Shown here piece by piece: positions 1 to 17,429 of a DNA stretch of 64,000 bases. Where the stretch lies: assembly GCA_017517745.1 (NCBI GenBank), contig JAFWYJ010000040.1, positions 18,453 through 82,452 of the forward strand. Reading direction: 5' to 3'. Below the pieces are notes generated by a model. That model was not told the DNA's origin and ran no database searches. It was given only the letters and a program-made list of their open reading frames with translations. The position numbers were made by a program, and so were the translations under genes. Every line of letters begins with the position of its first letter. Position 1 is the stretch's first letter. The DNA is from Clostridia bacterium. Its GTDB lineage: Bacteria > Bacillota > Clostridia > Oscillospirales > CAG-272.

Positions 1-986
1 AATTCTGCGCGGCAACGGGATGTGACGCAGAAGCAATGAAGGACGATCCCGAATGTGCCGCTTGGTTCAGTGAGAAGATCGAGAAGGCAAAGATCGCGCT
101 GACACAGAAGCAATCCACCTCGCTGACTCCTTCCTTTGAGGGAAGCAAGGCTAAGGTTGAGATCACCAGAGAGAAGTTTGATGAGATCACCAGGGGTCTG
201 TTCGACCAGACCATTTATCTTGTTGACCAGATGCTCAATGACAAAGGCATGAACATCGTGACCGACATCGATGAGATCATCCTCGTGGGCGGTTCTACCA
301 GAATGCTCCAGATCGAGGAGGGACTCCAGCTCCACTATAACAAGCCCATTTCCAAGTTTGACCCCGACAAGGCGGTTTCCAACGGTGCGGCACTGGTTGC
401 AAGCGGTGCAAGCCTTGAGGAAAACCTGGATATGCCTCCCGTAATGCCCGCAGGCGGCGACGCTTTCGGCGGCTTTGACAGCCCCAGCCTCGGTGGCGGA
501 AGTACCTTCGAGGACAAGAGCGGAAACACCAACCAGATCGTTGAGGTTTGCACCAAGTCTTACTGCCTCAGATATTACAACGGCGGCAAGGAGACCTTCA
601 TCAACCTGGTCAAGAAGGATGAGCCCAAGCCCGCGATCGGAACGACCAAGACGATCATTCCCGGTCTGGTGCTTGGTGGCGGTGATTCCAACGGAATGAC
701 CAACGAAGTTGCTCTTCTGATCATGGAGAATGACAGCCGTGACGATCACGTGGAGCGCGAGAACTGCGTGGAGCTTTACGAAGAGGTTCCGATTATGCTT
801 GCAGAGCCCGTATCCGCGTCCTCTCAGGTTGAGATTCAGCTTTACGTCAACATCAGTGGCGAGTTGAAGCTGACCTTGATCGAGACTGCAACCGGCAGAC
901 AGTACGAGATGATCCCCGTTCGTAAGGGCGGCGATACCAACAGTATCGGTATGGATGCTGCAACCGGATTTACTTTGGTGGGCTAA
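1..986 (+). CDS. Non-canonical Hsp70/DnaK-family protein, C-terminal portion (5' end outside window)
   Basis: The frame is open back to base 1, so the ATG at 36 is internal. Hsp70 nucleotide-binding-domain motifs are present: IILVGGSTRMLQI and DPDKAVSNGAALVA. A Gly/Pro-rich linker follows, then a short beta-rich domain (VEIQLYVNISGELKLTLIETATGRQYEM) resembling the Hsp70 SBD-beta. There is no helical lid or EEVD tail. Confidence 0.8.
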   Translation, partial: FCAATGCDAEAMKDDPECAAWFSEKIEKAKIALTQKQSTSLTPSFEGSKAKVEITREKFDEITRGLFDQTIYLVDQMLNDKGMNIVTDIDEIILVGGSTRMLQIEEGLQLHYNKPISKFDPDKAVSNGAALVASGASLEENLDMPPVMPAGGDAFGGFDSPSLGGGSTFEDKSGNTNQIVEVCTKSYCLRYYNGGKETFINLVKKDEPKPAIGTTKTIIPGLVLGGGDSNGMTNEVALLIMENDSRDDHVERENCVELYEEVPIMLAEPVSASSQVEIQLYVNISGELKLTLIETATGRQYEMIPVRKGGDTNSIGMDAATGFTLVG

Positions 987-1005
987 GGTTAAGCGTTGAA
1001 CTTAC

Positions 1006-1041
1006 AGGAAAGCCCGATCAAGCAATTGATTAGGCTTTCCT
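1006..1041 (+). terminator. Intercistronic hairpin between the two Hsp70 genes (weak terminator, attenuator or processing site)
   Basis: AGGAAAGCC (1006-1014) pairs with GGCTTTCCT (1033-1041). An inner ATCAA/TTGAT pairing lies within the loop. The hairpin is followed by a TTTCACTATTTATT tract that is T-rich but interrupted. Confidence 0.3.
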
Positions 1042-1074
1042 TTCACTATTTATTAATAAGTTGAGGTGTTTTTC

Positions 1075-3192
1075 ATGGGAATCAGCGTTGGAATTGATTT
1101 GGGAACAACTTACTCGGCGGTTGCCACCTTTGACAAGGCAACGGGAACCGTCAAAATTCTGAAGAATGACATCGGCGAGGACTGCACGCCCTCGGTTGTC
1201 TGCATTGAGGACGGCGAGGTGACCATCGGTCAAGCGGCGAAGGATCTGCAGGCGGCGGGCAACGTCAACACTGCGGCGTTCTACAAGAGCATGATGGGCG
1301 AGCCGAACTTCAGCTGTTACATCGATGGGCAAAGCTTTTCCGCGGAGAATCTTTCCGCAGCGTTTCTGCGCGGCCTCAAACAGGCTGTCGAGGAGGCGAA
1401 CGGAGTCACGATCGACAGCGCGGTCATCACGGTTCCCGCCTATTTCAACGAGGCACAGCGCCAGGCAACCCTTCGTGCAGGAGAGGCGGCAGGCATGCGG
1501 GTTCTCAAGCTCATCAACGAGCCGACCTCGGCAATCATTGCCTACGGTCTGACGGGGCAGGGAGAGAAGAACGTCATGGTCTATGACCTTGGCGGCGGAA
1601 CCTTTGACGTCACCATTGCACACATCCGCGGCGCAAACGTGGACGTGCTTGCCACCAACGGCAACCATCAGCTCGGCGGCAAGGATTGGGATGCTGTGAT
1701 CGTGGAGGAGGTCGCTTCTCGTTTTTACGATCAATTCGGAGTCAACGTTCGTGACTACGAGGACGTCATGAACGAGCTGGCGGTCAAGTGCGAAAAGACC
1801 AAAAAGGTGCTCACCAACGTTCCCGTGACACAGATCAGCGTGCAATGCGAGGGCTTTTACGGAAAATACGACATCTCAAGAGAATTCTTTGAAGAAAGAA
1901 CCCAAACGCAGCTGGCGGAAACCACGCTGCTCATTCAAAAATGCTTTGATGAGATCTCTCGGCAGAGCGGCAAGTCCTTTGGCTGGACGTCGCTGGATGA
2001 GGTGGTTCTCGTCGGAGGCTCGACCAGAATGCCGCAGATCAGCAAAATGATTACAGAGGCCTTTGGTCGTCCTCCCATCATCATTGGCAACAAGGTGGAT
2101 ACCATCGTTGCCTCGGGTGCGGCAATGCAGGCAAGCATTTGCAACGAAGGCTCGATCACGCTCAGCGCGGCTTCGGGCTTTGTCAGAAACACCAATACCG
2201 CTCCCGGCGCTCCGGCTCCCACCCTCACGATCTGCGGCGATGCGATCAAGGACGTGACTTCTCACAGCCTTGGCATGCTTGCCTTTTTGGAAGAGAAGAG
2301 CCTGGATCTGATCAACAGTATCATCATCCCCAAAAACTCCGCGATCGGAGAAGCACAGGGCAGATGGTACAAATCACACGCGGATAAGATCTGCGTACAT
2401 GTTCTGCAGGGCGAGTCCGACAATCCTTACGATTGTACCTTCCTCTATTCCTTCACCATCACCGGCTTGAAGGCAGGGCAGGAGAATCGCGTGCAGGTCT
2501 TCTTCCTCTACAACCCCAGCGGTATGGTAGAGGTCAGTGCGCAAGATGAAATGGGAAGAGATCTCCCCGTCAAGAAGGAGCAGGGTGCAGGTCTTGCGCT
2601 TTCGGCAGGGCGCTCTCTGGATCAGATCATCGCAGAGGTTCGCCGCGAGAAGGAAGAGGCGATGCGCAGACCTCCTCTGGACGTCACGTTCGTTGTGGAT
2701 ACGTCGGGAAGTATGGAAGGTCGCCCCCTCGATGAGGCAAAAAAATCGATTCAAGAATTCTTGGCGCAGCTTGATCAAACCGATGCCAAGATCTCGATTC
2801 TTAAATTCTCCGATTCTTGCGATTGGAAGTGTTATCAAACAGAAATCAGCAAGCGTCCTTTTATTCAAAAGGCAATTCAATCTTTGGAGGTGGACGGCGG
2901 AACCACTGCTACACCGCTTGGAGATTTCGCCAAAAAGCAGGGATTCCATAAGATTGACGGAAAGATTCTCGTGGTCTTGACCGACGGTGAATGGGAACAT
3001 CAGGGATTTGAGATCATGTCGGCGCAATCCCTCAAGAAAAAGGGCGTGATCATTTACGCCGTTGGAATTGGCGATGCCGATTTCGATTTTCTCTCGAAGA
3101 TCGCCTCGAACGGCGGCGCGAAGAAGATCGATTTGAGCAGCTTGGCCGACACGTTCCGCGCGATCGCCTCCAGCATCGCAACACAATCTTAA
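1075..3192 (+). CDS. Hsp70-family ATPase fused to a C-terminal von Willebrand factor A (vWA) domain
   Basis: The ATG at 1075 sits 8 nt after TGAGG; the track start at 1066 is a GTG. Hsp70 motifs: GIDLGTTYS, DLGGGTFDV, VLVGGSTRMPQI. An SBD-beta-like segment follows (VHVLQGES...VQVFFLYNPSGMVEVSAQD). The C-terminal vWA has a full MIDAS: DTSGS (DxSxS), TATPLG, LVVLTDGEW. Confidence 0.85.
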   Translation: MGISVGIDLGTTYSAVATFDKATGTVKILKNDIGEDCTPSVVCIEDGEVTIGQAAKDLQAAGNVNTAAFYKSMMGEPNFSCYIDGQSFSAENLSAAFLRGLKQAVEEANGVTIDSAVITVPAYFNEAQRQATLRAGEAAGMRVLKLINEPTSAIIAYGLTGQGEKNVMVYDLGGGTFDVTIAHIRGANVDVLATNGNHQLGGKDWDAVIVEEVASRFYDQFGVNVRDYEDVMNELAVKCEKTKKVLTNVPVTQISVQCEGFYGKYDISREFFEERTQTQLAETTLLIQKCFDEISRQSGKSFGWTSLDEVVLVGGSTRMPQISKMITEAFGRPPIIIGNKVDTIVASGAAMQASICNEGSITLSAASGFVRNTNTAPGAPAPTLTICGDAIKDVTSHSLGMLAFLEEKSLDLINSIIIPKNSAIGEAQGRWYKSHADKICVHVLQGESDNPYDCTFLYSFTITGLKAGQENRVQVFFLYNPSGMVEVSAQDEMGRDLPVKKEQGAGLALSAGRSLDQIIAEVRREKEEAMRRPPLDVTFVVDTSGSMEGRPLDEAKKSIQEFLAQLDQTDAKISILKFSDSCDWKCYQTEISKRPFIQKAIQSLEVDGGTTATPLGDFAKKQGFHKIDGKILVVLTDGEWEHQGFEIMSAQSLKKKGVIIYAVGIGDADFDFLSKIASNGGAKKIDLSSLADTFRAIASSIATQS

Positions 3193-3204
3193 CGGGAGTT
3201 CACG

Positions 3205-6200
3205 ATGGCAAATAATATCAGAACACAAGAAGAATACAAAAAGCCGGAATATAACTATTTCATTGCCCTGAAGCTGGGCATCAAGGAAAAGAATACGGCA
3301 AACATCGAAAAAAGCATCAGCAAGACCTGCGGAAGCACCAAGGGAGACCTGATTTCCCGCCGTCTCATCGAGCTTCGACAGGACATGACCGAGATCATGG
3401 TCAACGATGCAACCTACAATCCGCAAACCAACAGCTACGTCCCCAATTCGGGAGGTCGCCAGAAGGAGGCGGATGCGGCAAAGGCACTCAAACTTGAGGA
3501 ATTGATGAAGCTCGTTTACAATATGTGTATGAGCAACGGACGTATTTTCAAGAGTACCCTCAACGAGCTTTGCATTGCCGCCAATAAAACGGCAGAATAT
3601 TTTACGCTTGACGAGCTGATCAAAAAATGCGATTCGCTCAAGGCGCAGGGAATCAAGTTCATCGACAACATGACCTCGGCAATTCCGTTCGCGGAGTTCC
3701 AGACGGCAGGTCAGTTGCTCGAAACCCCTCCCGCCAAGGCAGACCTTTACGAGTTTTTGGGCGTGAGTAAGACCGCGTCCGTTGCGGAGATCAGTGCCGC
3801 GAGAGCAAACGCGTATAACGAGGCGCAGAAAAAGAGCGACCTCAAGATCAAGCAGTCGGTTTCGGCTCTTTGCGCAAAGGTTGACGCCATTCTCACCAAG
3901 AGCCCCGATATCCGTAAGCAGTATGACTATTACATCCAGGTCAAGGAAACCGTATGGGATCAGTTCAAGATGAGAAAGACCTACGGTGCCAAGAGTATTT
4001 CGCTGGATGAATATTATCAGTTTGCGGAAGAGCTGCAGCGCGTGCTTTCCATCAAAATCGACGAGGTCGAGGAGATGCTGGGCGCGGGACTGAAGTTCTA
4101 CGGTCTGGTAGTCGCGGGTGACGAGGGTGACGGAAGTGCCAAGGAAAAATTGGGCATTCCCGAGCTGGAGCTTTGTCCCTATCCCGATTGCGGTCAGATC
4201 TATCGCGCGGGAGCCAAGGCATGCCCGCATTGCGGCAAGCCGCTTGAAATCCTTTGCTGGAACTGCGGCAATCAGGTGCCCTTTACCGTCAAGCACAAGA
4301 CTTGTAGCCATTGCGGCGCCGCGCATGACGGCAAGGATCGCTATGAAGCGGTTTCGCGCGAGATCGATGCGCTTTTGCGCGCGAGCGTGTGCGATATTCC
4401 GAAGCTGCAGGCTGCACTCATGACTTTGAAAAATCTCGTTCCCAACGATAAGGGGGATGGAAAATCCACCATTTCCAAGAAGGTGGCGCAATGCGAAAAA
4501 ACCATTGCGGATAAAATCAAAGAAGAGGAAACAACGGGCGAGAAGTACCGCGCCGACGAAAAGCTGGTGCAGGAACAGATCGCTCTGAAGAATCTGATGA
4601 CCGCGGCGAGCATGGTGAGCAATATGCGCCGTGCATATCCCACCTACAACGCGGCAAACACCCAAGCGCTCGCCAATTCGATTCAGGCGACGATCTCCAA
4701 GGCGCAGGCAGGACTTGAACAGGTCAAGCGTTATGCGGCGCAGGGGAATGAGGCCATGGTGATCGATTCCGCCTCCAAGGTGCTGGAGATCTGTGCCGAC
4801 TATCTTGAGGCGAAGCAGTTCCTCCAAAAGTTCCCGCCTAAGACGCCCTCTGCCCCCGTGATCTCTGCGTCGGATGACGGCAAGGTTCATCTGGAGTGGA
4901 GAAAAGAAGGGGATCAGAAGATGGTGACCTACACGATCGTCAAAAAGATCGGAACGGCACCGCAGAACGTCAAGGACGGCGCTCTGGTCGAGGAAAATCT
5001 CGAGATCAACTTCTATGAGGACAGCAACATTGTTTCCGCCACGCCCTATCACTACGCGGTATATGCTACCCGTTGCGGCGTGAATTCCGGATTGCTCGTG
5101 TTCCCGTCGTCCATTCAGGTGTTTGGAGACGTTGCCAACATCCAGCAGGAGATCCTGCCCGGCAAGATCAGCGTGCATTGGGATGCACCGCAGAATTTTG
5201 CAAGCATCGACGTCTGGAAGAAGGAGGGAACTATTGCTCCTCTCAAGGCGGGTGACGGCACCAAGCTTTCCGGCACGAAGGACGGCTTCGTAGACGAGGA
5301 TTGCAAGGGAGAAAACAGCTACCTCATCATTTGTACCTACAAGACCGCAGAGGGTGTGAAGTGCTCTCGCGGAATTACGCATACCTTTAAGAAATACGAC
5401 ATGATCGAGCCTCTGCGCGAGGTCAAGCTGACACAGAACACACAAACCGAGTTCTGTCTGTCCTGCAAGAATCCTTCGGACGAGAAGCTCCGTGTGGTGT
5501 TCAGCAAGAACAAGCTTCCTTGCCGCGCCGACACCGTTTTGCAGATGATGGATTACAACACCTATATCAAGGGTGGAACCACATTGCCGATCTTCTACGA
5601 TAATGACGGCGCGACCTGCTTCAATCTGCCTGCGAACGCGATGGGATACGTGTACGTGTTGGTTTACAACGATCAGCTCTTCTGCGCATCGGCTCCGATC
5701 GCCGCCAATGCGCTCGCCGGCATCACCAGCCTCTCCTATGAGGAGCAGAACGCGGGCGTGAAGATCAAGGGTAACCTGAATCCCGCAACCAAGCGCGTGA
5801 TCGCCAAGATCAGCGATACGGCTTTTGCAAAATCGATCAATGACAAGGGCGAGCAGATCGCCATCACCAAAGAACAGTTTGAGAGAGACGGCGGTTTTGT
5901 GCTCAAGCTCAAGACGAATGCTTCGCACTATATTTCGGTGTTTGCCGAATTGGATCTGGAGGGACATGTCACCACGTCCTACGGCACGCCGTTGGAGAAT
6001 GTGATCGACCTGCGCGAAAAGGTTACCGTGCAGTATTGCATGGAATTCACCGTGTCGCAATCCAAGCCTTTCAAGATGACGCTGAAATTTGCGGCGGATC
6101 AGCCCGTGGATCTTCCCGACATGCTGTTGATGAAAGGCGTACCGCGGCCTCTGAACAAGAGCGCCGGAACGCTGGTGGAGCGCGTGAGCGGTGTGGCACT

Positions 6201-6342
6201 GAAAAAAGGCCTCTTCTCCTCGCGTTATACGGCAAAGATCACCCTGACCGTCCCTGCAGACAGACCGAACATGAGGTTCATTCTGTTTACGGCTGACGAT
6301 CACGTCAAACATGCCAAGCTCAAAGAGGTTACGTCTCTGTAA
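3205..6342 (+). CDS. 1045-aa multidomain protein: degenerate J-like domain (no HPD), double zinc ribbon, coiled coil, FN3-like beta domains
   Basis: Residues ~178-243 (DLYEFLGVSKTASVAEISAARANAYNEAQKKSDLK...ILTKSPDIRKQYDYY) follow the J-domain helix I-IV pattern, but the HPD position reads KKS. The zinc ribbons are CPYPDC..CPHC and CWNC..CSHC (nt ~4174-4317). FN3-like signatures are PSAPVISASDDGKVHLEW...YHYAVYA and ISVHWDAP...YLIICTY. The gap to the upstream gene is 12 nt. Confidence 0.75.
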   Translation: MANNIRTQEEYKKPEYNYFIALKLGIKEKNTANIEKSISKTCGSTKGDLISRRLIELRQDMTEIMVNDATYNPQTNSYVPNSGGRQKEADAAKALKLEELMKLVYNMCMSNGRIFKSTLNELCIAANKTAEYFTLDELIKKCDSLKAQGIKFIDNMTSAIPFAEFQTAGQLLETPPAKADLYEFLGVSKTASVAEISAARANAYNEAQKKSDLKIKQSVSALCAKVDAILTKSPDIRKQYDYYIQVKETVWDQFKMRKTYGAKSISLDEYYQFAEELQRVLSIKIDEVEEMLGAGLKFYGLVVAGDEGDGSAKEKLGIPELELCPYPDCGQIYRAGAKACPHCGKPLEILCWNCGNQVPFTVKHKTCSHCGAAHDGKDRYEAVSREIDALLRASVCDIPKLQAALMTLKNLVPNDKGDGKSTISKKVAQCEKTIADKIKEEETTGEKYRADEKLVQEQIALKNLMTAASMVSNMRRAYPTYNAANTQALANSIQATISKAQAGLEQVKRYAAQGNEAMVIDSASKVLEICADYLEAKQFLQKFPPKTPSAPVISASDDGKVHLEWRKEGDQKMVTYTIVKKIGTAPQNVKDGALVEENLEINFYEDSNIVSATPYHYAVYATRCGVNSGLLVFPSSIQVFGDVANIQQEILPGKISVHWDAPQNFASIDVWKKEGTIAPLKAGDGTKLSGTKDGFVDEDCKGENSYLIICTYKTAEGVKCSRGITHTFKKYDMIEPLREVKLTQNTQTEFCLSCKNPSDEKLRVVFSKNKLPCRADTVLQMMDYNTYIKGGTTLPIFYDNDGATCFNLPANAMGYVYVLVYNDQLFCASAPIAANALAGITSLSYEEQNAGVKIKGNLNPATKRVIAKISDTAFAKSINDKGEQIAITKEQFERDGGFVLKLKTNASHYISVFAELDLEGHVTTSYGTPLENVIDLREKVTVQYCMEFTVSQSKPFKMTLKFAADQPVDLPDMLLMKGVPRPLNKSAGTLVERVSGVALKKGLFSSRYTAKITLTVPADRPNMRFILFTADDHVKHAKLKEVTSL

Positions 6343-6354
6343 TCTCAACAAACG

Positions 6355-6415
6355 CTCCGCCGCGCCCGCAGAGCGGGGCGGCGGAGGAATACCGATGAAA
6401 GGATGGAGAACATGA
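6355..6415 (+). promoter_or_regulatory. GC-rich hairpin overlapping a GGAGG, plus a 6-codon mini-ORF whose stop overlaps an in-frame ATG of the next gene
   Basis: CTCCGCCGCGCCCGC (6355-6369) pairs with GCGGGGCGGCGGAG (6373-6386) with one bulge, and no U-tract follows. GGAGG (6383-6387) lies 7 nt upstream of the ATG at 6395. That ATG opens MKGWRT-stop, and its TGA (6413-6415) overlaps the ATG at 6412-6414, which is in frame with the 6403 ORF. Confidence 0.3.
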
Positions 6416-7749
6416 TTACCGGAAACACCACTGTTCGCGTGATCGAGGGAAACCGATTGAACGATACCGTGCCCGAGGCGGCAAAGCAACGTCAACAGCC
6501 AACCCCGTCCAACCCTCGTCCGATCAACATACTTTTCAACGGTAAGAACGGGAAGGGAATGCCCGATCAGTTTGTCCTGACCGAGCGATTGCTCAGCCAG
6601 CATCTGATGCTCATCGGAGGCATCGGTTCGGGCAAAACCAACACCTTCAATCAAATCATGCAAAACATCGCGCCGCAGCTTTCCGCGCGGGACGTGATGA
6701 TTATTTTTGATACCAAAGGCGATTTTCTCAAGGAGTTTTATGCTCCCGGAGACATCGTCATCAGCAATGATACCACAGCAAGAGGAGCAAACGGCCCCGA
6801 CTATTGGAACATTCTCGCAGAGCTTGAGGATGACGATTCGCTTGAGGTCAACTGTGTGGAGATCGCCACGGCGCTCTTTGCCGACAAGCTGAGCGAGGGC
6901 GGAGATTCCTTTTTCCCAAACGCGGCAAAGGATTTGCTCACCGCCGTGCTGTATCATTTCGTCAAAAACCGTGCTCAGATTCGATCGAGCAACAAAACGC
7001 TCTCGGAATGTCTCAAAGGTGTGAATCACGAATGGTTTTTGGCTTTGCTGAATAAATATCCGCAGTTCAAGGCGATGAAGAGTTACATTCCGCAAGACGC
7101 GCCCGGTCAGGCGATCGGCGTGCTGGCGGAGCTTCAGCAGGTGGTGCGCCAGGTGTTCATCGGCAACTTTGCCAAAGAGGGAACACTTTCCGTGCGCAAC
7201 CTCGTGCGTCGCAAAGGCGGAAAAAAGATTTTCATTGAATATGATATCGGTATCGGCGGAATGCTTACACCGATTTACAGTTTGATGTTCGATCTGGCAA
7301 TCAAGGAGGCACTCTGCCGTTCCAAGAGCGACGGAAACGTGTTTTTCGTGGTGGACGAGTTCAAGCTTCTTCCCAACCTCAAGCACATTGACGACGCAGT
7401 CAACTTCGGCAGAAGCCTTGGCATCAAGTTTATGATCGGCATCCAGAACGTGGATCAGATCATCAAGGCGTATGATGAGCACATGGCGTTGAATATCTTT
7501 TCGGGATTTCTCAATCAATTTGCCTTCAAGGTCAGTGATCATTCCACAAGAGAATATATCAAAGAGCGTGCGGGGATGAATCGCAAGCTCACAATGTATA
7601 AAACGGTAACCGTCCAGGAATCGATCGAGGGAGCAAACGTCATCGAAGACTGGGACGTGGGAAATCTGAAGTTGGGGCAGGCTGTGGTCATGCTCAACAG
7701 CGCGGAACCCTTCGTATTCGGTTTCCCCGAATTCATCGGCAGGAGTTAG
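6403..7749 (+). CDS. Soluble FtsK/HerA-superfamily P-loop ATPase resembling type IV coupling proteins (VirD4/TraG/TraD-like), without an N-terminal TM anchor
   Basis: Walker A is LIGGIGSGKTN and Walker B is FFVVDEFKLL. Other T4CP-like blocks: GPDYWNILAE, FFPNAAKDLL, IKFMIGIQNVDQI. No hydrophobic N-terminus is present. The start could be 6412 (see the mini-ORF feature). Confidence 0.7.
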   Translation: MENMITGNTTVRVIEGNRLNDTVPEAAKQRQQPTPSNPRPINILFNGKNGKGMPDQFVLTERLLSQHLMLIGGIGSGKTNTFNQIMQNIAPQLSARDVMIIFDTKGDFLKEFYAPGDIVISNDTTARGANGPDYWNILAELEDDDSLEVNCVEIATALFADKLSEGGDSFFPNAAKDLLTAVLYHFVKNRAQIRSSNKTLSECLKGVNHEWFLALLNKYPQFKAMKSYIPQDAPGQAIGVLAELQQVVRQVFIGNFAKEGTLSVRNLVRRKGGKKIFIEYDIGIGGMLTPIYSLMFDLAIKEALCRSKSDGNVFFVVDEFKLLPNLKHIDDAVNFGRSLGIKFMIGIQNVDQIIKAYDEHMALNIFSGFLNQFAFKVSDHSTREYIKERAGMNRKLTMYKTVTVQESIEGANVIEDWDVGNLKLGQAVVMLNSAEPFVFGFPEFIGRS

Positions 7750-7751
7750 TT

Positions 7752-8966
7752 ATGGGATTCTTATTTGGAAACGGCGGCATTTTTGCCGCGTCCCCCGGCA
7801 GGGGTAACGTTGTGAGCCTCGACACGAGCCTCGGAAACACCATTCTCGTGGGCAATTCGCCCAGGGGCATTGAATCCGTGATGCGAAATTATCTCATCGA
7901 CGCGCTCAATAAGGGCAATGCGGTGGTGATTTTGCGCAACGGAGAGAACGGTTTTTCGGCATATCCGAGCGTGGTGAATATGCGCGGCAGAATCTATGAC
8001 GTTGACGTCGCAGAGGATCTTGGAGCGGAGCAGATCGATGGCTTTTCCGGTTATTCCGACCGTGAGCAGGACATGGCCATGCTGCAAACGATGGAGATGT
8101 ATAATCAGATCGATCCTGCAAAGAAGATGAAGTTCCAAAACTATATTTCCATTGTCCGCAGCCTGCTGGCCACGCGCAAAAAACGCTTGCGCCTGAACGA
8201 GCTGTATCAGTATAACGTTGATGAAGTGGAGATGCTCAATGCCTCCGCTCCCATCCCCGATGCGGAAAAGATGCGCAACGAGCGTTTCTTCAACAGTTTC
8301 CGCGCGGACATTTTTGAGTTTGAAACCTATTTTTATGAGTTTTCCAACAATGCCGTCGGACACATCCTCTCGGGCGCGAAATCGTTGGAGACGATCTTCG
8401 CGAGCAAGAACGTGATTGAAATCTCTTTTGATTTCAAGTCGCATGAAACCGACTCCAACGTCCTGCTTCACGCGCTGGTCAACGTGCTTGGAAAATTCAA
8501 CTGTGCGGCAGCCGGCAAAAGAGGCTTGACGGTGGCGGTCAACGAGATTCCCAACGAGAGCTTGGAGCAATCGGGACTGCAAAAGCTGATCAAAAATACG
8601 CCCAATTGCAACGTGATCTATTCGGTCGCGGACATTTCCAAACTGATCGAAAAGACCAACGATTGGATTGAGTACGCCGACAGCTATTTCTTCCTGAGAC
8701 AGACTTCGGACAAGAACAAGGAGTTCAGCTCAAGCTTCTTCGGTACATACGAAAAACAAAAGGTGAGCACCAATCAAAGCCGTTCCACTCCCTCCTTCTG
8801 GGATCGCCTGAACAATCGCGGCGCTGTGACCAGCACCAGCGGAACCACGGTGACCACCGAAAAAGAACGTGTTTATCAGCCCGACGATTTTGCGGTGATG
8901 CCCGAAAACGAAGCGATTTATTTCTTCAAAAAAACCAATTCGCATAGCCGCATCAGGCTGTTCTGA
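7752..8966 (+). CDS. Paralog-like partner of the upstream ATPase with degenerate Walker motifs (predicted catalytically inactive)
   Basis: It starts 2 nt after the upstream stop. The Walker-A position reads VGNSPRGIES (no Lys-Ser/Thr) and the Walker-B position reads LTVAVNEIP (no Asp-Glu). The C-terminus ERVYQPDDFAVMPENEAIYFFKK resembles the T4CP C-terminal block. The paralogy call was made by eye. Confidence 0.55.
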   Translation: MGFLFGNGGIFAASPGRGNVVSLDTSLGNTILVGNSPRGIESVMRNYLIDALNKGNAVVILRNGENGFSAYPSVVNMRGRIYDVDVAEDLGAEQIDGFSGYSDREQDMAMLQTMEMYNQIDPAKKMKFQNYISIVRSLLATRKKRLRLNELYQYNVDEVEMLNASAPIPDAEKMRNERFFNSFRADIFEFETYFYEFSNNAVGHILSGAKSLETIFASKNVIEISFDFKSHETDSNVLLHALVNVLGKFNCAAAGKRGLTVAVNEIPNESLEQSGLQKLIKNTPNCNVIYSVADISKLIEKTNDWIEYADSYFFLRQTSDKNKEFSSSFFGTYEKQKVSTNQSRSTPSFWDRLNNRGAVTSTSGTTVTTEKERVYQPDDFAVMPENEAIYFFKKTNSHSRIRLF

Positions 8967-8980
8967 AAGGGAGGGTTCTC

Positions 8981-9688
8981 ATGAGCAGAAACGATCAGGA
9001 CAAAACCAAGGAATACAGAGACGGCGAGGCGATCGAAAAACGCTTCAACCGTTGCAAAGATCATCCGAACGAAAGATATGCCGCGATGGAGGACTACCGT
9101 GATAATCTCCAAAAGCAAAAAGACGCTCTTGCGGACATGAAGGACAAAAACAGTCCCGAATATCAGCAGCGGAAGGGAGAGATTGCGGAGCAGGAAAGCA
9201 AGTACAAGGAAATGTGGAACGAGGCTCAGAAATCCTACGGCGAGAATCGGCAGCAGGAAAAAGTGAACCAAGTCGATCGCTTGAGAGCCGAAAACCGTGA
9301 GCTTTCTTCGAAGATGGAAAAGGCGGCGGAAAAAGGAAACAAGAGTCAATATGATTCGCTGCGCCAAAAGTACGAGACCAACCTCAAGGCACAAGAGGGC
9401 GTTTGCAGAGATCTGCGAGAAGATCGTGTCGAACATCGTGACACCACGTCGCAGCAAAGATCGGCAATGGTGGATAGTGATCGCCATATGGCGGAAAAAG
9501 TGAGAAGAGACTCCAAGGACAAGAATGACAAATACAAAAATCAAGCACAAGCGAGTCAAAAAGAAGCAATGAAGAAGCAGGACGATAAGGCGCTCGATGA
9601 GAAACGAATGACCTACGGCATTTCGGAGGAGGAAATCAACGCCGAGCGCCGAACGAGAGAGCATGAGCGCAACGAGCATTGCAGATAA
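8981..9688 (+). CDS. Hyper-charged (K/E/D/R/Q/N-rich) 235-aa protein, paralog 1
   Basis: A strong RBS (GGGAGGG) precedes it. It aligns end to end with the next ORF through shared blocks: DKNSPEY, KYETN-KAQEG, YG-SEEEINAER. There are almost no hydrophobic stretches. Confidence 0.7.
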   Translation: MSRNDQDKTKEYRDGEAIEKRFNRCKDHPNERYAAMEDYRDNLQKQKDALADMKDKNSPEYQQRKGEIAEQESKYKEMWNEAQKSYGENRQQEKVNQVDRLRAENRELSSKMEKAAEKGNKSQYDSLRQKYETNLKAQEGVCRDLREDRVEHRDTTSQQRSAMVDSDRHMAEKVRRDSKDKNDKYKNQAQASQKEAMKKQDDKALDEKRMTYGISEEEINAERRTREHERNEHCR

Positions 9689-9745
9689 GCCCGCTATCTT
9701 GAAAATTTCGCATCCCTCATCAGATTCTTCCAAGGAGGATGGCAA

Positions 9746-10456
9746 ATGAAAAGCAAAGACAAAAACGACATTATCAGCAAGCGGTTTGATGCCTATGCAA
9801 AAAGTGGCGATCACACCGAGATGTATGCCGCAAAGGCGGAGTATGACGAGAATCTGCGCGATCAAAAGAATGAGCTGGAGGATATGAGGGACAAGAACAG
9901 CCCCGAATATCGGCAGAAGAAAGAAGAGATCGAAAAGCAGGAAGAACGCTCCAAGGAAATGAGCCGTGAAATCGATAAACAATACAAAAAGGAGCACGGC
10001 TACAACGATCAAAACGCCAAGAAGGAGGATCTCGAAAAACTCAAACGCGAAAATCAAGGCATTTCGCGTGAGATGCACCGCGCGGTGGAGAAGGGCGACA
10101 CCAAGAAATTTGACGCGCTTTCTCAAAAATATGAGACCAACATCAAGGCGCAGGAGGGGATCAGCAAAGAGCTGAAGACCAACGGCATCGACCATGAGGA
10201 TACCAGCTACCGCCAAAGAGTTGATTTGAAAAATCAAAACAACGATATGAGCGATAAACTCAGAGCATCTTCCAAACCCAAGGATCGGGAAAATGCACAG
10301 AAATACATGAATCGGACGCGCGAGTGCGAGCAGAAGGAGCTCAAGAAGAAGGACAACGCCGAGCTTGACCGCATGAAAAACAACTACGGTCTCTCGGAAG
10401 AGGAAATCAACGCCGAGCGCAAAAAAATGGAACACGAGCGCGAAAAGTACAGATAA
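9746..10456 (+). CDS. Hyper-charged 236-aa protein, paralog 2 (tandem duplicate)
   Basis: RBS AAGGAGGA precedes it. Length, composition and conserved blocks match those of 8981-9688. Confidence 0.7.
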   Translation: MKSKDKNDIISKRFDAYAKSGDHTEMYAAKAEYDENLRDQKNELEDMRDKNSPEYRQKKEEIEKQEERSKEMSREIDKQYKKEHGYNDQNAKKEDLEKLKRENQGISREMHRAVEKGDTKKFDALSQKYETNIKAQEGISKELKTNGIDHEDTSYRQRVDLKNQNNDMSDKLRASSKPKDRENAQKYMNRTRECEQKELKKKDNAELDRMKNNYGLSEEEINAERKKMEHEREKYR

Positions 10457-10516
10457 GCCCCCCTGAGTCAATCGAAAATCCAAATCAAGCAAATCATATA
10501 GAAAGAGGAAAAAACC

Positions 10517-11623
10517 ATGGCAAAATTCACATGCCCGTACTGTTATGCCACTCATACGCTGGATACCTGCGGAATGAAGTGCTCCTATAACATCACGGGT
10601 ACCGACGTCACCTGCAAGAAAAACCTTCCAAAGGATGCTGAAGGTTGGATCCCTCAGCTCTACAAAAAGCAGTGCCTCGCGTGCAAGGATGCGAGAAAGC
10701 GCATCTATTGTCCCACCGTGGAAAAGGAAATTCCCACCGAGTTCCTCTCGGGCGAGAGTCTTCCCATCGCACTCGTGGGCGCAAAGGCATCGGGCAAATC
10801 CAACTACATCGGCGTGCTGATCGATGAGGTCAAAAGAAAGATGGCACGGAGCTTTAACACCACGCTCAGCGTGAGCTGTGACGAGACCTCCCGTCGATTC
10901 TACGATCAGTTCTACAAGATCCCGCTCTACACACACGGAGAGGTGGTCGCCGCCACCGACGCTGGAGAAATGCCTCCCATGATCTTCCCGTTGCGCTTTA
11001 TGGATCGCAAGGATCGCATCATCAACAGCGCGACGCTGACCTTCTATGACACCGCAGGAGAGAATCTTGACTCGGATGAGGAAATGCTGATCTACAATCG
11101 CTACATCCCCAATGCAAAGGGAATCATCCTGCTTCTTGACCCGCTGCAGGTACCCGGTATTCGTCAGCAACTCGAGGGAAAAATGCAGCTTCCTGCCATG
11201 AACACCGACGTGACCGAGGTTCTCAGCCGCGTGGTCGAGAATATCCGAAGCGTCAAGAACATCAAGGGAACCATCAACATCCCGCTGGCTCTGGCATTCA
11301 CCAAGCTCGACGTGCTGGAAAAGTTTGACATCATTTCTGAGGACAGCCTCTTGCGAGAGGAATCTCGCCATCTTGAGCTGGGCGCGTTCTCCATGTCGGA
11401 TTTCGACAGCTGTACCATTCAGATGAGAGACATTCTGGAAAACTGGCTGGATGCCGAGTTCACCCAGTTGGTCAAAAACTTCTCCAAGTACGCTTTCTTC
11501 GGCGTGTCGGCATTGGGAGAAGTGCCTGAGAATAACACTGTTTCTTCCATCAAGCCCAAGCGTGTGCTTGACCCGCTGCTTTGGCTGTTGGCGGAAAACA
11601 AATACATCAAGAAAGTGAAGTGA
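10517..11623 (+). CDS. Zinc-ribbon-fused TRAFAC-class GTPase (soluble)
   Basis: N-terminal Cys clusters are CPYC...C..C and CLAC...C. The G1 motif is GAKASGKS, G3 is FYDTAGE (DxxG), and G4 is FTKLD (an NKxD variant). RBS is AGAGGAAAAAACC-ATG. Confidence 0.8.
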   Translation: MAKFTCPYCYATHTLDTCGMKCSYNITGTDVTCKKNLPKDAEGWIPQLYKKQCLACKDARKRIYCPTVEKEIPTEFLSGESLPIALVGAKASGKSNYIGVLIDEVKRKMARSFNTTLSVSCDETSRRFYDQFYKIPLYTHGEVVAATDAGEMPPMIFPLRFMDRKDRIINSATLTFYDTAGENLDSDEEMLIYNRYIPNAKGIILLLDPLQVPGIRQQLEGKMQLPAMNTDVTEVLSRVVENIRSVKNIKGTINIPLALAFTKLDVLEKFDIISEDSLLREESRHLELGAFSMSDFDSCTIQMRDILENWLDAEFTQLVKNFSKYAFFGVSALGEVPENNTVSSIKPKRVLDPLLWLLAENKYIKKVK

Positions 11624-11630
11624 TTCATTG

Positions 11631-14318
11631 ATGAAAGCGGCTCAGTATATGTACACGTCTTGGAAAAATGCCCCCAATCACGGATTCAGTCTCTATTCGA
11701 TGACGCCGGGACTCTCCGCGACCGACAGCGAGGACATTTCCAAAATGATGAAGTACGTTTTGCAGCCCGGAATGCCGCGTGATCCTTCCGATGAGGAAAT
11801 CGCGTCTGTTCTGCCGCGAAACGTCGCGTTCTTCCCACTTTCCTCGGGTAGGTACTGCCTCGCACAGGCGGGCTACGTGGGACGTGAATACCGAGGCTTT
11901 GAGGACGGCGGCCGTCTTGGAAACTATCTTTTACACGCCTATATTTTGGACGATGTGAAGGACGTTCTTCCCATGTCTTTCGTGGGAGACGACATTTTCC
12001 GCTACGACCTGACGAAGGAGGAGTGGCAGGCAACCAATCCCGCGCCGCTTCCCATTGTGGAGCTTGCTCCCGTCGGAAAGATGCTGACCCAAAGCGAGAT
12101 CGCGTCGTTCTTCGATGCAACTCGCATCGAAACGCTGGAAAAGCTGGTTCAGGCGATCATCACTGCATCGGCAAACGGAAAAACCGTCTTTTTCAATGAC
12201 GAGAATGCAAACATGCGCTTTTGGTACAAGGCTTTGGCGGTCTGTCTGCCGGTCAGCCTTTCGAAAACGGCGTTCAACACGTACTCGCTTTCGATGAGCC
12301 TGCCTGTCGGTGTTTCTCCTTGCTGCAAGCTCAGCCTCATGAACGTTTCGGTCAGCAAGGATCCCGCCATTCCGATCACCGCGCCCAACCTCGCGGACGA
12401 GACGCGAAAGGGCAACTTTGTCATCGACTTGGTGCGTGGAGCTTATAGCCCCGTTACGGTCGGTTCTTATGCCAAGGCTGTTTGCGCGAAATTCAAGGCG
12501 AATCTCTTTGACGCGGTCAATTTCGCGAAGAAGATCGACGTTACGGCGGCAAGATATTCCTGCACCGTCGATCAGGCGATGGATATCCTCTGCTTCTCCG
12601 AGGGCAAGCTGGATCAGTTCCCGAGCATTGGTGACGTGCTGAGGGTGATCCGTCTGCTTGGCGACGGCACGCCGGATGCACAGATGCAGAACAGCATCAC
12701 CCGATTTGCCGAGCGCATTCTGACGGGCGCATATCCTTACGGAAATGAGCTTTGCGAGGCAATCAAAAACGTGGTTTATCCCAACGTTGCCGATGATTGG
12801 AAGCAGAAGTTGCTCGCTTACGTGATGCAGACCGCACTCTCCATGAATGCACCGAGCAAGGCAGCGTTCGCAAAGGCGGTCGATTCCGCGATCCCGTGCG
12901 ATAAATTGACGGCGGCACGTTATATTTACGATAACAAGATCTATGACCGCTTGTTGGGCGGAGATCTTTATCAGATTCACTATCTGGCAACCATGACTGT
13001 CGAGAATTATACCGCGCTGCAGACGGTATATGGCAAGCTTCCCACCATGATGCTGAATACGGTGGTGTCCAAGTACATCGGACAGAACGATTTCGCTTCG
13101 TTGGATGAGCTGGTAGCGCTCGCTCCCGGACTCACGGGCAGTGCGATCGCAGTGGTGATCTGTCACTATGCAGAGAAGAAGACGCTCGGTCAGATCTCGG
13201 TGGATGCCTTCTTCCGTGTCCTTCCCAAGGCAACGCTTTCGAGCGATGCTCTGGTCACTCTCATGACCGAGGCAATCGCGCTGTGGGGAAGGGATGCCGA
13301 TTTCTGCCGAAAGTACGAGGCGTTTGCTGCGACGAATGCGCAGGCGGATGCCGCACTCCGCGCAATTCCCGCGTGTGTGCCGTTCTTTGACGAGATGGAG
13401 GTGCATCGCTTCCGCTCGAGCCGCCCGACGATGGACGGACTTTGCAATTACTTCATGCGGATCTATGCCAAGAATCCCGATGACACGGCGTTCGAAGCAA
13501 AGCTGACCGAATATTTGAAGCCTTTGGATTGGAAGACTTGTCTGCGTGAATCGATCACGGTTTACTCCAGATGCTTCAAGCCGAAAAAAGGCTGGACTCC
13601 GAACGATTTGCGCATCGTGCAAGTCTTGCGCTGGAATGTGTTGGAAAAACCGGAGCGCCGTGAGTTTTCCAAGGCGCTTCTGTCGGAAGTAAATCTCCGC
13701 ACGATGGTGGACGGATTCGTGAAGGATACCGAGATGAGAGGTTGCGGCAAAGATGCCTTCTATGCGATGATCTCCGCCTTTGCCGAGATCATTGCCAAGC
13801 CTGCACTCCAGGCAGTGAAGGCCATCGAGACACAAACGCTTCTCGCGGGACTTCTGGTCTCCAAGGAAACGGCGGCAATCTTCAATCAAAACCTTGCCGA
13901 GGAGTATCTCATCTACGTCACAGAGGCAATCAAGGCGTCCCGAAAAGAGGATCATCCCTTGTTGACAACGGCACTCCTTCCTCTGACAGCCGATGAGCCT
14001 TCCTTCAAAAAGGCGATCGCCGCGATTCTTTCTTCCAACGAAAAGGATGCGCAGAAGCGCAGTTTGCGACTGCGGGCAGTATTGCTTCTGCACGTTTCCA
14101 CCGATGCCAAGCCGCACAAGGCGCTCAAGGCAGTATTTGAGGATGACTTCCTCAATTGCTCCAAGAAGGAACGCTTGAACGTGCACAAGGCGACGGCAAA
14201 GGCGACACAAGACAAAGATCTGTTTGCAAAGAGTCTGGAATATGTGACAGACTTCAATGCAAAGCACAAAACCGGTTTCTTTGACAAGCTGAAGGGCTTG
14301 TTTGGAAATAAAAAATAA
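11631..14318 (+). CDS. 895-aa mostly helical protein of unknown function; candidate GTPase-associated (GAP1-like) scaffold
   Basis: The ATG at 11631 follows the GTPase stop by 7 nt. The N-terminal pattern QYMYTSW...HGFSLYSMTPGLS and GRLGNYLLHAYIL recalls, from memory, the N-terminal module of GTPase-associated protein 1 families. This functional label is tentative and was not verified by any search. Confidence 0.6.
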   Translation: MKAAQYMYTSWKNAPNHGFSLYSMTPGLSATDSEDISKMMKYVLQPGMPRDPSDEEIASVLPRNVAFFPLSSGRYCLAQAGYVGREYRGFEDGGRLGNYLLHAYILDDVKDVLPMSFVGDDIFRYDLTKEEWQATNPAPLPIVELAPVGKMLTQSEIASFFDATRIETLEKLVQAIITASANGKTVFFNDENANMRFWYKALAVCLPVSLSKTAFNTYSLSMSLPVGVSPCCKLSLMNVSVSKDPAIPITAPNLADETRKGNFVIDLVRGAYSPVTVGSYAKAVCAKFKANLFDAVNFAKKIDVTAARYSCTVDQAMDILCFSEGKLDQFPSIGDVLRVIRLLGDGTPDAQMQNSITRFAERILTGAYPYGNELCEAIKNVVYPNVADDWKQKLLAYVMQTALSMNAPSKAAFAKAVDSAIPCDKLTAARYIYDNKIYDRLLGGDLYQIHYLATMTVENYTALQTVYGKLPTMMLNTVVSKYIGQNDFASLDELVALAPGLTGSAIAVVICHYAEKKTLGQISVDAFFRVLPKATLSSDALVTLMTEAIALWGRDADFCRKYEAFAATNAQADAALRAIPACVPFFDEMEVHRFRSSRPTMDGLCNYFMRIYAKNPDDTAFEAKLTEYLKPLDWKTCLRESITVYSRCFKPKKGWTPNDLRIVQVLRWNVLEKPERREFSKALLSEVNLRTMVDGFVKDTEMRGCGKDAFYAMISAFAEIIAKPALQAVKAIETQTLLAGLLVSKETAAIFNQNLAEEYLIYVTEAIKASRKEDHPLLTTALLPLTADEPSFKKAIAAILSSNEKDAQKRSLRLRAVLLLHVSTDAKPHKALKAVFEDDFLNCSKKERLNVHKATAKATQDKDLFAKSLEYVTDFNAKHKTGFFDKLKGLFGNKK

Positions 14319-14339
14319 AATAAAGAAAGAGGTAGTATC

Positions 14340-14528
14340 ATGGAAATCATTGGACACATTTTAATGATTATTCTTTACATTTGTTACCTACTGTTCATGA
14401 CCTTGTTGCTCATCGCGATCGCAGCGATCACAACGGCAGTCGGTGTGGGTATGGGACTTGTAAAGGGAATCAACCACGCGCTCGAAATTTATTTCGGAAC
14501 ATTAATTGAAGAGATTGGAGATAGATGA
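14340..14528 (+). CDS. 62-aa small membrane protein
   Basis: RBS is AGAAAGAGG. One or two hydrophobic helices are present (ILMIILYICYLLFMTLLLIAIAAITTAVGVGMGL). It lies in operon context. Confidence 0.55.
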   Translation: MEIIGHILMIILYICYLLFMTLLLIAIAAITTAVGVGMGLVKGINHALEIYFGTLIEEIGDR

Positions 14529-14532
14529 CGCT

Positions 14533-16023: not shown

Positions 16024-16032
16024 ATTCAAACG

Positions 16033-17109
16033 ATGCTACAAAAGGAATATTGGCGCACAAAGCTTTCCCCGGCGGATCAGAAGACCTATGATCTGATTCG
16101 CGCGGGGCTGGCATCCCAGCGGGAGCGAACCGCCATTCCGACCTTTTCGGGAGATCCGAACGGCATTTTGCCGATCTATCAGGCGATCTGGAACGATCAC
16201 CCCGAACTCTATTGGCAGACCTATGCACCGGGCGTTGCGCAAGCGGCATCTTCGTTTGGCGGATTGTTTGGCTCGGGGGGCGCACCTCGGTTTGAGGTCA
16301 TCCATCCGACGCTTTATCAACCCAAGGAAACGGCAAGCATCAACGCGTCCATTCGGAACGTGCTTGCGAAGTTGGATGCGTTGAAGGCACAGCCAAAGAT
16401 CGATCAGATCATCGCCGCGATTCTGCATCTTGCAAAGCACGTAACCTACGAGATCAACAACGAAAAGAACCAGAATGCGGCGTCAGCCCTCTACTTCGGA
16501 CGTGCGCAATGCACGGGATATGCCAAGGCGTTCAAGCTGATGATGGATCATCTCGGCATCCCCTGCATATTGGTTTCGGGATCGGCAATGGCAAGAGAGG
16601 GGGATCCCTCCTCCATGGGACCGCATGCGTGGAATCTTGTTGAGCTGGACGGTGCTTGCTATCACCTGGACACCACCGCGGTGGCAGGAAACGTCGATGA
16701 CCGCGAGGATATTTTGGCAAGTCTGCTGTTTCTCGGAAAGGATGGGGATTTTGAGAAAAACCATGTGTGGGATCGCAAATCGATTCCCGCATGTCCCAAT
16801 CATTCTCCCTACCGTGCGACAAAGATCATTCCCTCACCGGGCGCAGGGATGCCCTCCAAGCCCGATGATGCAAGCGTTACGCAGATCTCCTCGCTTTACG
16901 AATTGCGGATGCTTTTGGCACGCGAGTTTGCAAGCGAGAAAACTTGCACGTTTGCTTTTCGCATGAACATGAGTCTGCCGACCGAAAAACTTCATCCTCA
17001 TGTGATGAGCAGCATTCAGGCAGCGCTCAATCAAGCAAAAAAATCATCGAGCGTAGAGACGACTTGTCAGGGAACGCTCTATCAGCTGACGAGAACCGTG
17101 AGCCCGTAA
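16033..17109 (+). CDS. Transglutaminase-like cysteine peptidase superfamily protein
   Basis: A Cys-His-Asp arrangement is present: RAQCTGYAKAFKLMMDHLGIP, then GPHAWNLVELDGACYHLDTT. This is typical of the transglutaminase core. Confidence 0.75.
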   Translation: MLQKEYWRTKLSPADQKTYDLIRAGLASQRERTAIPTFSGDPNGILPIYQAIWNDHPELYWQTYAPGVAQAASSFGGLFGSGGAPRFEVIHPTLYQPKETASINASIRNVLAKLDALKAQPKIDQIIAAILHLAKHVTYEINNEKNQNAASALYFGRAQCTGYAKAFKLMMDHLGIPCILVSGSAMAREGDPSSMGPHAWNLVELDGACYHLDTTAVAGNVDDREDILASLLFLGKDGDFEKNHVWDRKSIPACPNHSPYRATKIIPSPGAGMPSKPDDASVTQISSLYELRMLLAREFASEKTCTFAFRMNMSLPTEKLHPHVMSSIQAALNQAKKSSSVETTCQGTLYQLTRTVSP

Positions 17110-17141
17110 GACAAAAATAACGAAATTGGAGATATCATCCG

Positions 17142-17414: not shown

Positions 17415-17429
17415 GGAAAGGGATCGATT

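Follow-up and report, generated by a model that had tools for sequence, protein, structure and literature searches.

A predicted pair of lidless Hsp70 proteins, one fused to a vWA domain, within a GAP1-N2-type DO-GTPase cassette of a Clostridia bacterium

The DNA considered here, hereafter the window, is a stretch of 64,000 nucleotides (nt) from a Clostridia bacterium (Oscillospirales, CAG-272; GenBank assembly GCA_017517745.1, contig JAFWYJ010000040.1, positions 18,453 to 82,452 of the forward strand). Two adjacent plus-strand genes at its left edge code for noncanonical Hsp70 paralogues, Hsp70A and Hsp70B-vWA (Hsp70B for short), the second of which is fused to a von Willebrand factor A (vWA) domain that carries an intact metal ion-dependent adhesion site (MIDAS). 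A first-pass annotation, made from the sequence without database searches, had described this tandem arrangement and the fusion as a free-standing chaperone pair. Its domain calls stand; what it missed is the context, in which the pair is one module of a cassette that also codes for a GrpE-like protein, DO-GTPases, and a GAP1-N2 protein. Features are listed in Table 1.

The most likely start of Hsp70B is the ATG at position 1075, preceded at a distance of six bases by a GAGGTG; a GTG at 1066 is less likely. Residues 8 to 360 match the Pfam HSP70 family (PF00012) with 321.7 bits (1e-95; cut-off, 20.6), and residues 539 to 684 match the VWA family (PF00092) with 78.1 bits (1.2e-21; cut-off, 23.8). 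Among solved structures, the nearest sequence relatives of the C-terminal domain are the I domains of integrin alpha-M (E about 4e-7), and both lines of evidence identify it as a vWA domain. An alignment of 61 homologues with 49 to 86% identity revealed that the ATP-binding and catalytic residues D8, T11, T12, K71, E149, D171, T176, D178, GG201-202, and GGS314-316 of the Hsp70 part are invariant. So are the MIDAS residues D542, S544, S546, and D637, while the remaining MIDAS position, T610 in the window, is threonine in 43 homologues and asparagine in 18.

An AlphaFold2 (AF2) model of Hsp70B was built on the same alignment (predicted local distance difference test [pLDDT], 86.7; predicted template modelling score [pTM], 0.70). 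Foldseek placed its nucleotide-binding domain (NBD) and the beta-sandwich part of its substrate-binding domain (SBD-beta) onto a lid-truncated BiP, the best match, and onto ATP-state DnaK, with a target-normalised template modelling score of 0.8. The two domains are docked in the model in an ATP-like arrangement, and HMMER aligned residues 409 to 529 to the SBD-beta of DnaK. Neither a lid nor an acidic tail follows; the SBD-beta is succeeded by one helix and then by the vWA domain. In the model, therefore, a vWA domain with a complete MIDAS occupies the position of the lid, a point that the first-pass annotation had proposed to check by modelling.

The open reading frame (ORF) of Hsp70A is cut by the edge of the window, within which the frame runs open from the third base and has no start. 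A public metagenome contig (L001), which is identical to the window across an overlap of 13,192 nt (0 mismatches), supplies the rest. The start lies 688 nt upstream of the window, and the full protein (P0121) has 557 amino acids (aa) and matches PF00012 with 271.9 bits (1.2e-80; cut-off, 20.6). The phosphate-1 and phosphate-2 motifs lie outside the window and are present on L001, so the early statement that both proteins keep the ATPase motifs can be verified from the window itself for Hsp70B and is known for Hsp70A only through that contig. With the whole protein in hand, the catalytic and nucleotide-binding motif residues of Hsp70A are invariant among 59 homologues. Judged by these conserved residues, with none of the key catalytic positions lost in either family, Hsp70A and Hsp70B are catalytically intact, lidless Hsp70s. 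Their NBDs share 36% identity with each other.

The AF2 model of Hsp70A (pLDDT, 91.1; pTM, 0.89) likewise has the NBD and SBD-beta docked in an ATP-like arrangement, and its best Foldseek match is the ATP-bound, open DnaK 4b9q (TMq, 0.79; root mean square deviation, 3.8 Å over 588 columns). The modelled protein ends 24 aa past the SBD-beta and has no alpha-helical lid, in line with the early reading that neither paralogue possesses the lid or the C-terminal tail of DnaK. A further proposal, that a Gly/Pro-rich linker replaces the lid of Hsp70A, did not survive, because that segment sits between the NBD and the SBD-beta; according to the model it lengthens the interdomain linker and is no lid substitute. 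The protein ends instead in a short tail, for which the 59 homologues share the motif P-x-R-K-[GS]-[DG]-[DE]-A-N-x-x-G-[ML]-[DE]-x-[VA]-x-G-x-T-L. The acidic positions of this tail are speculative candidates for a ligand of the Hsp70B MIDAS.

Both proteins stand apart from the well-known Hsp70 families. Hsp70B scores far below the NCBIfam equivalog cut-offs for DnaK (293 versus 648 bits) and HscA (278 versus 708 bits), and the in-window part of Hsp70A reaches 62 to 71 bits against the same equivalogs, also below the cut-offs. In a neighbor-joining tree, Hsp70A and Hsp70B each form a clade of their own outside the generic Hsp70 genes, presumed to be DnaK, of diverse genomes. The tree is rough (one method, no bootstrap, no HscA, HscC, or YegD sequences) and serves only for this statement.

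The pair is widespread. Each Hsp70 is represented by more than 120 clusters at ≥49% identity, and a search with the SBD-beta and vWA half of Hsp70B against 1.84 billion representatives returned 43 matches at E ≤ 1e-30. About 60 of the best 150 clusters (at 50% identity) are proteins of 680 to 735 aa that match end to end, with the vWA domain at the same position. The Hsp70-vWA architecture predicted from these matches is thus that of a sizeable family. When genomes were scanned with the full-length alignment, ordinary DnaK dominated the output, owing to generic NBD motif patterns, and only four full-length matches were of use; the scan was repeated with the SBD-beta and vWA half, and both scans are samples rather than a census. 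One protein from a 43-kb Logan contig (P0009; 1,233 aa) joins an orthologue of Hsp70A (53% identity) in frame to an orthologue of Hsp70B-vWA, which suggests that the two act together, with the proviso that P0009 is a single cluster member and may be an assembly or frameshift artefact.

Directly downstream of Hsp70B is the gene for a protein of 1,045 aa in which a J-like neighbour had been recognized early on. A profile of 11 J-like segments, searched against the PDB, gave 42 J-domain matches, the best with an E value of 2.3e-07 over the whole domain; on this profile evidence, the segment is a true J-domain homologue. The His-Pro-Asp (HPD) motif is replaced by N-E-A in the window and is present in 0 of the 11 homologous segments, including proteins labelled DnaJ by Pfam. 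Since the HPD is lost, the trigger for hydrolysis is probably noncanonical. By eye, the C-terminal 580 aa of the protein are beta-rich, and the gene stands where a fibronectin type III (FNIII)-repeat protein would be expected in related systems; the long C-terminal region is presumed to be that component. The N-terminal ~100 aa were considered as a second J-like domain and rejected, as a profile search gave no J-domain match.

Immediately 5' of Hsp70A on L001 lies a gene for a divergent GrpE-like protein (344 aa; 31.2 bits versus a Pfam GrpE cut-off of 25.8) with an N-terminal extension of ~180 aa. According to the Pfam annotation of L001 and scans of the window, the cassette of ~17 kb runs from there through Hsp70A, Hsp70B-vWA, the 1,045-aa protein, a TrwB/VirD4-like ATPase, a 404-aa protein, and two charged proteins to a type 2 DO-GTPase, a GAP1-N2 protein, a 62-aa ORF, a second type 2 DO-GTPase, and a transglutaminase-like protein. 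The GAP1 gene follows the 368-aa DO-GTPase directly, and among the matches listed orthologues of that GTPase occur at the same position in all Bacillota loci.

Table 1. Coordinates of the Hsp70 pair and of the other cassette features within the window
Feature	Position in window	Strand	Evidence or remark
Hsp70A, last 327 codons and stop	3-986	+	Pfam HSP70, 1e-21 for in-window part
Hsp70A, remaining NBD	3-407	+	Full NBD is aa 1-365
Hsp70A, Gly/Pro-rich disordered insert	408-500	+	About aa 366-396, between NBD and SBD-beta; disordered at about aa 375-393, AF2 model
Hsp70A, linker strand and SBD-beta-like domain	501-911	+	Strand equivalent to hydrophobic interdomain linker
Hsp70A, conserved acidic C-terminal tail, ~24 aa	912-983	+	Conservation in 59 homologues
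Stem-loop between Hsp70A and Hsp70B	1006-1041	+	9 bp, 1-nt bulge, 6 bp, GCAA loop; weak U-rich tail 3'
Hsp70B-vWA, 705 aa	1075-3192	+	Pfam HSP70, 1e-95; VWA, 1.2e-21
Hsp70B, NBD	1075-2148	+	aa 1-358, AF2 model
Hsp70B, variable disordered Gly/Ala/Pro insert	2164-2223	+	aa 364-383; short strand precedes
Hsp70B, linker strand and SBD-beta sandwich	2224-2586	+	aa 384-504, AF2 model
Hsp70B, single connecting helix	2617-2664	+	aa 515-530, AF2 model
Hsp70B, vWA domain, Rossmann-like	2677-3186	+	aa 535-704, AF2 model
Hsp70B, MIDAS codons	D542 2698-2700; S544 2704-2706; S546 2710-2712; T610 2902-2904; D637 2983-2985	+	
1,045-aa partner protein, helical at its N terminus	3205-6342	+	Directly downstream of Hsp70B
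J-like domain without HPD	3733-3933	+	aa 177-243; J-domain profile versus PDB, E 2.3e-07
Double zinc ribbon	4183-4317	+	aa 327-371; Pfam DZR, 2.4e-06
TrwB/VirD4/HerA-like ATPase	6403-7749	+	Pfam TrwB_AAD_bind, 1.3e-41; NCBIfam TraD/VirD4-like matches
404-aa partner	7752-8966	+	Within variable insert
Two paralogous charged proteins, 235 and 236 aa	8981-9688; 9746-10456	+	43% identity
DO-GTPase (type 2), 368 aa	10517-11623	+	PF19993, 28.6 bits (cut-off 27)
GAP1 with GAP1-N2 domain, 896 aa	11628-14318	+	PF20013, 63.3 bits (cut-off 24); weak GAP1-M match
Hydrophobic ORF, 62 aa	14340-14528	+	ORF list; between GAP1 and second DO-GTPase
Second DO-GTPase, 505 aa, N-terminal hydrophobic segments and zinc ribbons	14506-16023	+	PF19993, 45.9 bits, 7e-12 (cut-off 27)
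Transglutaminase-like protein	16033-17109	+	Pfam Transglut_core, 1.3e-10; probably last cassette gene

Comparison across genomes indicates how closely the pair is tied to its neighbours. Among the matches listed, the core order of GrpE-like protein, Hsp70A, Hsp70B, ~1,040-aa protein, DO-GTPase, GAP1-N2 protein, and DO-GTPase recurs in 11 of 11 Bacillota loci, namely, the window (with L001), L005 from Metabacillus litoralis, L085 to L089, and L090 to L093 from Christensenellaceae, Ruminococcus, and Anaeroplasma. The relatives range from 85% identity (L087) through 69% (L089), 65% (L088), 58% (L085), and 51% (L086) down to 36% (L005), and in the Bacillota loci compared the linkage of the pair to the DO-GTPases and GAP1-N2 is obligate. 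Other phyla present a different arrangement, as evidenced by loci from Myxococcota, "Deltaproteobacteria," and Oligoflexia (L007/L096, L008, L094, L095, L097, L098, and L108) in which the genes for an Hsp70-vWA, a short GrpE, and another Hsp70 stand side by side. A link to the StkA/Hsp70 of Myxococcus xanthus was considered and rejected; the neighbours of StkA are SCP2- and PhaE-like, and two papers on it give no link to vWA or GrpE.

The 88-nt spacer between Hsp70A and Hsp70B (positions 987 to 1074) holds a hairpin that the first-pass annotation had noted and for which it had proposed a role in setting the stoichiometry of the two proteins. The hairpin itself is real, with stems of 9 and 6 bp and a GCAA loop in a spacer that folds at -24 kcal/mol (z = -3.0 versus shuffles). 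The proposed role has comparative support, since a significant hairpin occurs in this spacer in 8 of 10 loci, the window included. The 85% identical locus L087 has the same hairpin with its loop changed from GCAA to GCGA, and L086, L088, L089, L090, L091, and L092 have unrelated ones (z from -2.6 to -7.7), of which that of L092 carries a U7 tail and is a canonical intrinsic terminator. The spacers of L085 and L005 are 30 to 38 nt long and have no hairpin; in the window's cassette, the spacer between the GrpE-like gene and Hsp70A and two later spacers have no structure. A promoter and terminator scan did not flag the hairpin, because its stem is bulged, and the number of terminator-like sites that it found in positions 1 to 18000 equals the shuffled expectation. 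The stretch that separates the Shine-Dalgarno sequence of Hsp70B from the hairpin is too short for a promoter. From these features, the element is probably a leaky terminator or a stabiliser, which would set a step in expression between the genes for the GrpE-like protein and Hsp70A and those downstream.

Much of this cassette has been described in silico. Kaur, Burroughs, Iyer, and Aravind (eLife 2020, PMC7159879) defined GAP1-N2 DO-GTPase systems with an "HSP70 + GrpE" theme and predicted a role for them in biological conflict. According to the text of their paper, such a system comprises DO-GTPases, single or paired, with zinc ribbons and transmembrane segments on one of a pair, together with a GAP1-N2 protein encoded downstream of a DO-GTPase and a large protein of rapidly evolving FNIII repeats, to which a DnaJ is fused in the HSP70 theme; mobility and variable effector-like components are reported. 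The same text refers to "complexes akin to cytoskeletal structures," suggests multimeric HSP70 assemblies, and proposes pairs of MoxR and vWA proteins as thresholding modules of conflict systems. Our cassette agrees with it in the two type 2 DO-GTPases, one with zinc ribbons and transmembrane segments, and in the GAP1-N2 protein, the DnaJ-type domain on a large protein, the GrpE, the second HSP70, and the Firmicute host. Because the system was already catalogued computationally, the finding is not categorically new; the Hsp70 pair in it is real, and its domains had been read largely correctly.

The differences from that description lie in the Hsp70s themselves and in their J-type partner. The text of the paper has a second HSP70 without a peptide-binding domain and leaves a vWA fusion unmentioned, whereas here neither paralogue has lost its SBD-beta and the second bears a MIDAS-intact vWA, features that the paper's figures may show. 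Here, too, the J-like domain lacks HPD, and the window's lineage has an additional TrwB-like ATPase block, which is not among the GAP1-N2 system components named in that text. The strings HSP70, GrpE, and DnaJ do not occur in the text of the supplement, as far as it was available.

Compared with the DnaK-DnaJ-GrpE machinery, the pair and its partners draw on the same three families, with the catalytic residues of the NBD, the hydrophobic strand of the linker, and the SBD-beta fold all retained. They differ in that there are two Hsp70 paralogues, which have neither the lid nor the C-terminal tail and carry long flexible inserts ahead of the linker; the J domain is HPD-less and buried in a 1,045-aa protein, and the GrpE has its N-terminal extension. 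The MoxR and vWA pairs of the RavA-ViaA type, found in the ternary systems of PMC7159879, likewise link an NTP-driven chaperone to a vWA that has a MIDAS and binds peptides or proteins, and both they and the Hsp70 units have been proposed as thresholding modules in conflict systems; unlike in those pairs, the ATPase here is an Hsp70 and not an AAA+ MoxR, and the vWA stands in cis at the lid position. Pfam scans detected no MoxR or AAA+ ATPase gene among the cassette proteins. The McrBC-related CoCoNuT systems (PMC11090510) offer another likeness, as their CnuD and CnuCD contain noncanonical Hsp70 NBD and SBD modules in predicted defence operons that also contain TerY-like vWA proteins and FtsK/VirB4-like ATPases. 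However, in the Hsp70 units of CoCoNuT the ATPase motifs are degenerate and the fusion partners are McrB/McrC or HEAT repeats, whereas here the motifs are intact and the partner is a vWA, and scans of the cassette found no McrBC, HEPN, or TerY-P triad genes.

On balance, we favor the interpretation that the pair is an ATP-driven chaperone module of a chromosomal GAP1-N2-type DO-GTPase cassette that is predicted to act in biological conflict. We propose that the Hsp70s would dock on the J-like domain of the large partner protein, which would be their scaffold, while ATP binding, hydrolysis, and GrpE-driven exchange would cycle their SBD-beta clefts. The vWA domain of Hsp70B may act as a metal-dependent clamp in place of a passive lid, gripping a partner or target by one of its acidic residues, so that Hsp70B would be a single-chain analogue of a MoxR-vWA chaperone/co-chaperone pair. 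The first-pass annotation's phrase, metal-dependent capture coupled to an Hsp70 cycle, may reasonably be read from the domain architecture. The GTPases and GAP1 would gate the output, probably near the membrane, and the hairpin probably attenuates read-through such that the yield of the GrpE-like protein and of Hsp70A exceeds that of Hsp70B-vWA and of the products of the downstream genes.

Several observations weigh against this interpretation. A full-text search of the literature found no experimental work on any DO-GTPase system and no other paper on DO-GTPases or GAP1-N2. Among the matches listed, no DO-GTPase or GAP1 was detected in the flanks of the triads from Myxococcota, "Deltaproteobacteria," and Oligoflexia, so the Hsp70-vWA module is not strictly tied to GTPases, and a copy from Planctomycetales (L006) is followed by genes for FHA and vWA proteins. 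Neither Hsp70 matched any defence model in PADLOC, and given the housekeeping genes that flank the cassette and a slight dip in GC content, a conflict role is not evident from the context. With regard to mechanism, a J-like domain without HPD means that canonical J-stimulated hydrolysis may not occur and that the Hsp70 cycle is possibly atypical, and at the pTM of the Hsp70B model it is uncertain where the vWA lies with respect to the SBD cleft. Finally, Pfam (E up to 10) and phmmer searches against the PDB detected no FNIII in the C-terminal half of the 1,045-aa protein.

A bolder version, which we hold tentatively and with less expectation that it is right, takes Hsp70A, Hsp70B-vWA, the dedicated GrpE, and the HPD-less J-like scaffold to be a self-contained, portable capture machine. 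The vWA would be a metal-dependent clamp in place of the lid, hydrolysis would be triggered noncanonically, by the HPD-less J-like domain or by the GTPases and GAP1, the two paralogues may be joined into a heterodimer by binding of the acidic Hsp70A tail to the MIDAS, and the GTPase-free triad of the Myxococcota type would be ancestral. If this is true, the machine would be an Hsp70-based analogue of MoxR-vWA.

The strongest rival holds that the cassette has no part in immunity or conflict and is a cellular assembly machine, for example one that is membrane-proximal, cytoskeleton-like, or envelope-remodelling. In this view the large repeat protein would be assembled or remodelled by the Hsp70 pair, with the GTPases as switches. 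We consider it rather improbable, although much can be said for it: both Hsp70s are abundant and conserved, the gene order is stable, the flanks are housekeeping genes with no integrase, phage, or plasmid genes in view, one GTPase has transmembrane segments, the operon ends in a transglutaminase-like gene, and PMC7159879 itself refers to cytoskeleton-like complexes. The flanking genes that differ between relatives, the variable insert in the middle of the cassette, and the mobility and variable effector-like components reported in that text speak for conflict instead, and none of these is decisive; the sequence cannot decide between conflict defence and the building of a cellular structure.

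That Hsp70A and Hsp70B are ordinary specialised folding chaperones, of the DnaK, HscA, or HscC type and beside the GTPases by chance, is very unlikely. The strong similarity of their NBDs to DnaK and BiP and the dedicated GrpE homologue agree with such a role, but both proteins are lidless, their scores do not come near the equivalog cut-offs for DnaK and HscA, the pair stands outside the generic clade in the rough tree, the linkage to DO-GTPases and GAP1 holds down to 36% identity, and the J partner lacks HPD. We give even less credence to the notion that one Hsp70, or both, is a pseudo-ATPase with a purely structural part, as a scaffold or as an actin-like subunit of a polymer. The HPD-less partner and the multimeric assemblies suggested in PMC7159879 point in that direction; nevertheless, neither family varies at any catalytic or nucleotide-binding position, and the conserved, adjoining GrpE-type exchange factor would be sensible solely for a cycling ATPase. 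Least credible is an origin of the pair in an element for conjugation or type IV secretion, as might be read from the TrwB/VirD4-like ATPase four kilobases downstream, because no relaxase, VirB4, pilin, or integrase occurs among the ORFs scanned, the window is otherwise ordinary chromosome, and L085, L086, L090, L091, and L005 keep the Hsp70 pair and the GTPases without the ATPase block.

Hsp70 allostery is known almost wholly from lid-bearing, HPD-stimulated proteins of the DnaK type. If the ATPase cycle of the chaperone module that we favor drives metal-dependent capture, it would link Hsp70 to its substrates by a novel route and provide an experimental handle on DO-GTPase systems, which have so far been predictions. 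A cultivated carrier, Metabacillus litoralis SW-211 (L005), makes the cassette testable. We regard the pair as being of moderate interest: the family is large, and among Hsp70 proteins it is unusual both to have a vWA in place of the lid and to work beside a J partner without HPD.

The remaining genes of the cassette deserve brief mention. The flanking housekeeping genes differ from genome to genome, and the dip in GC content is a weak signal of foreign origin. In a scan of nine cassette proteins with PADLOC-DB 2.0, which left the 505-aa DO-GTPase and the transglutaminase-like protein outside its scope, Hsp70A, Hsp70B, the 1,045-aa protein, the 368-aa DO-GTPase, and GAP1 had no match; the TrwB-like ATPase alone gave weak matches of the HerA/mad8 type. 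The transglutaminase-like protein, which has a thiol peptidase fold, is a possible effector or processing enzyme. The strongly hydrophobic 62-aa ORF overlaps the start of the second DO-GTPase, and genes for 59 to 61 aa occur at the same place in L085 and L086.

The insert from position 6403 to 10456 varies among lineages, being present in L087 to L089 and missing from L085, L086, L090, L091, and L005. By eye, its TrwB-like ATPase has a Walker A motif (GGIGSGKT) and a Walker B motif of the form hhhhDE. The 404-aa protein was considered as a degenerate paralogue of this ATPase and rejected, as the two have no significant pairwise similarity. The highly charged paralogues stand in tandem and are probably coiled-coil proteins; close relatives have a single copy of the gene, which points to a recent duplication. 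At the boundary of the insert, after the gene for the 1,045-aa protein, lies a GC-rich hairpin (6355-6386; -30.7 kcal/mol; z = -4.1) that is terminator-like on the minus strand.

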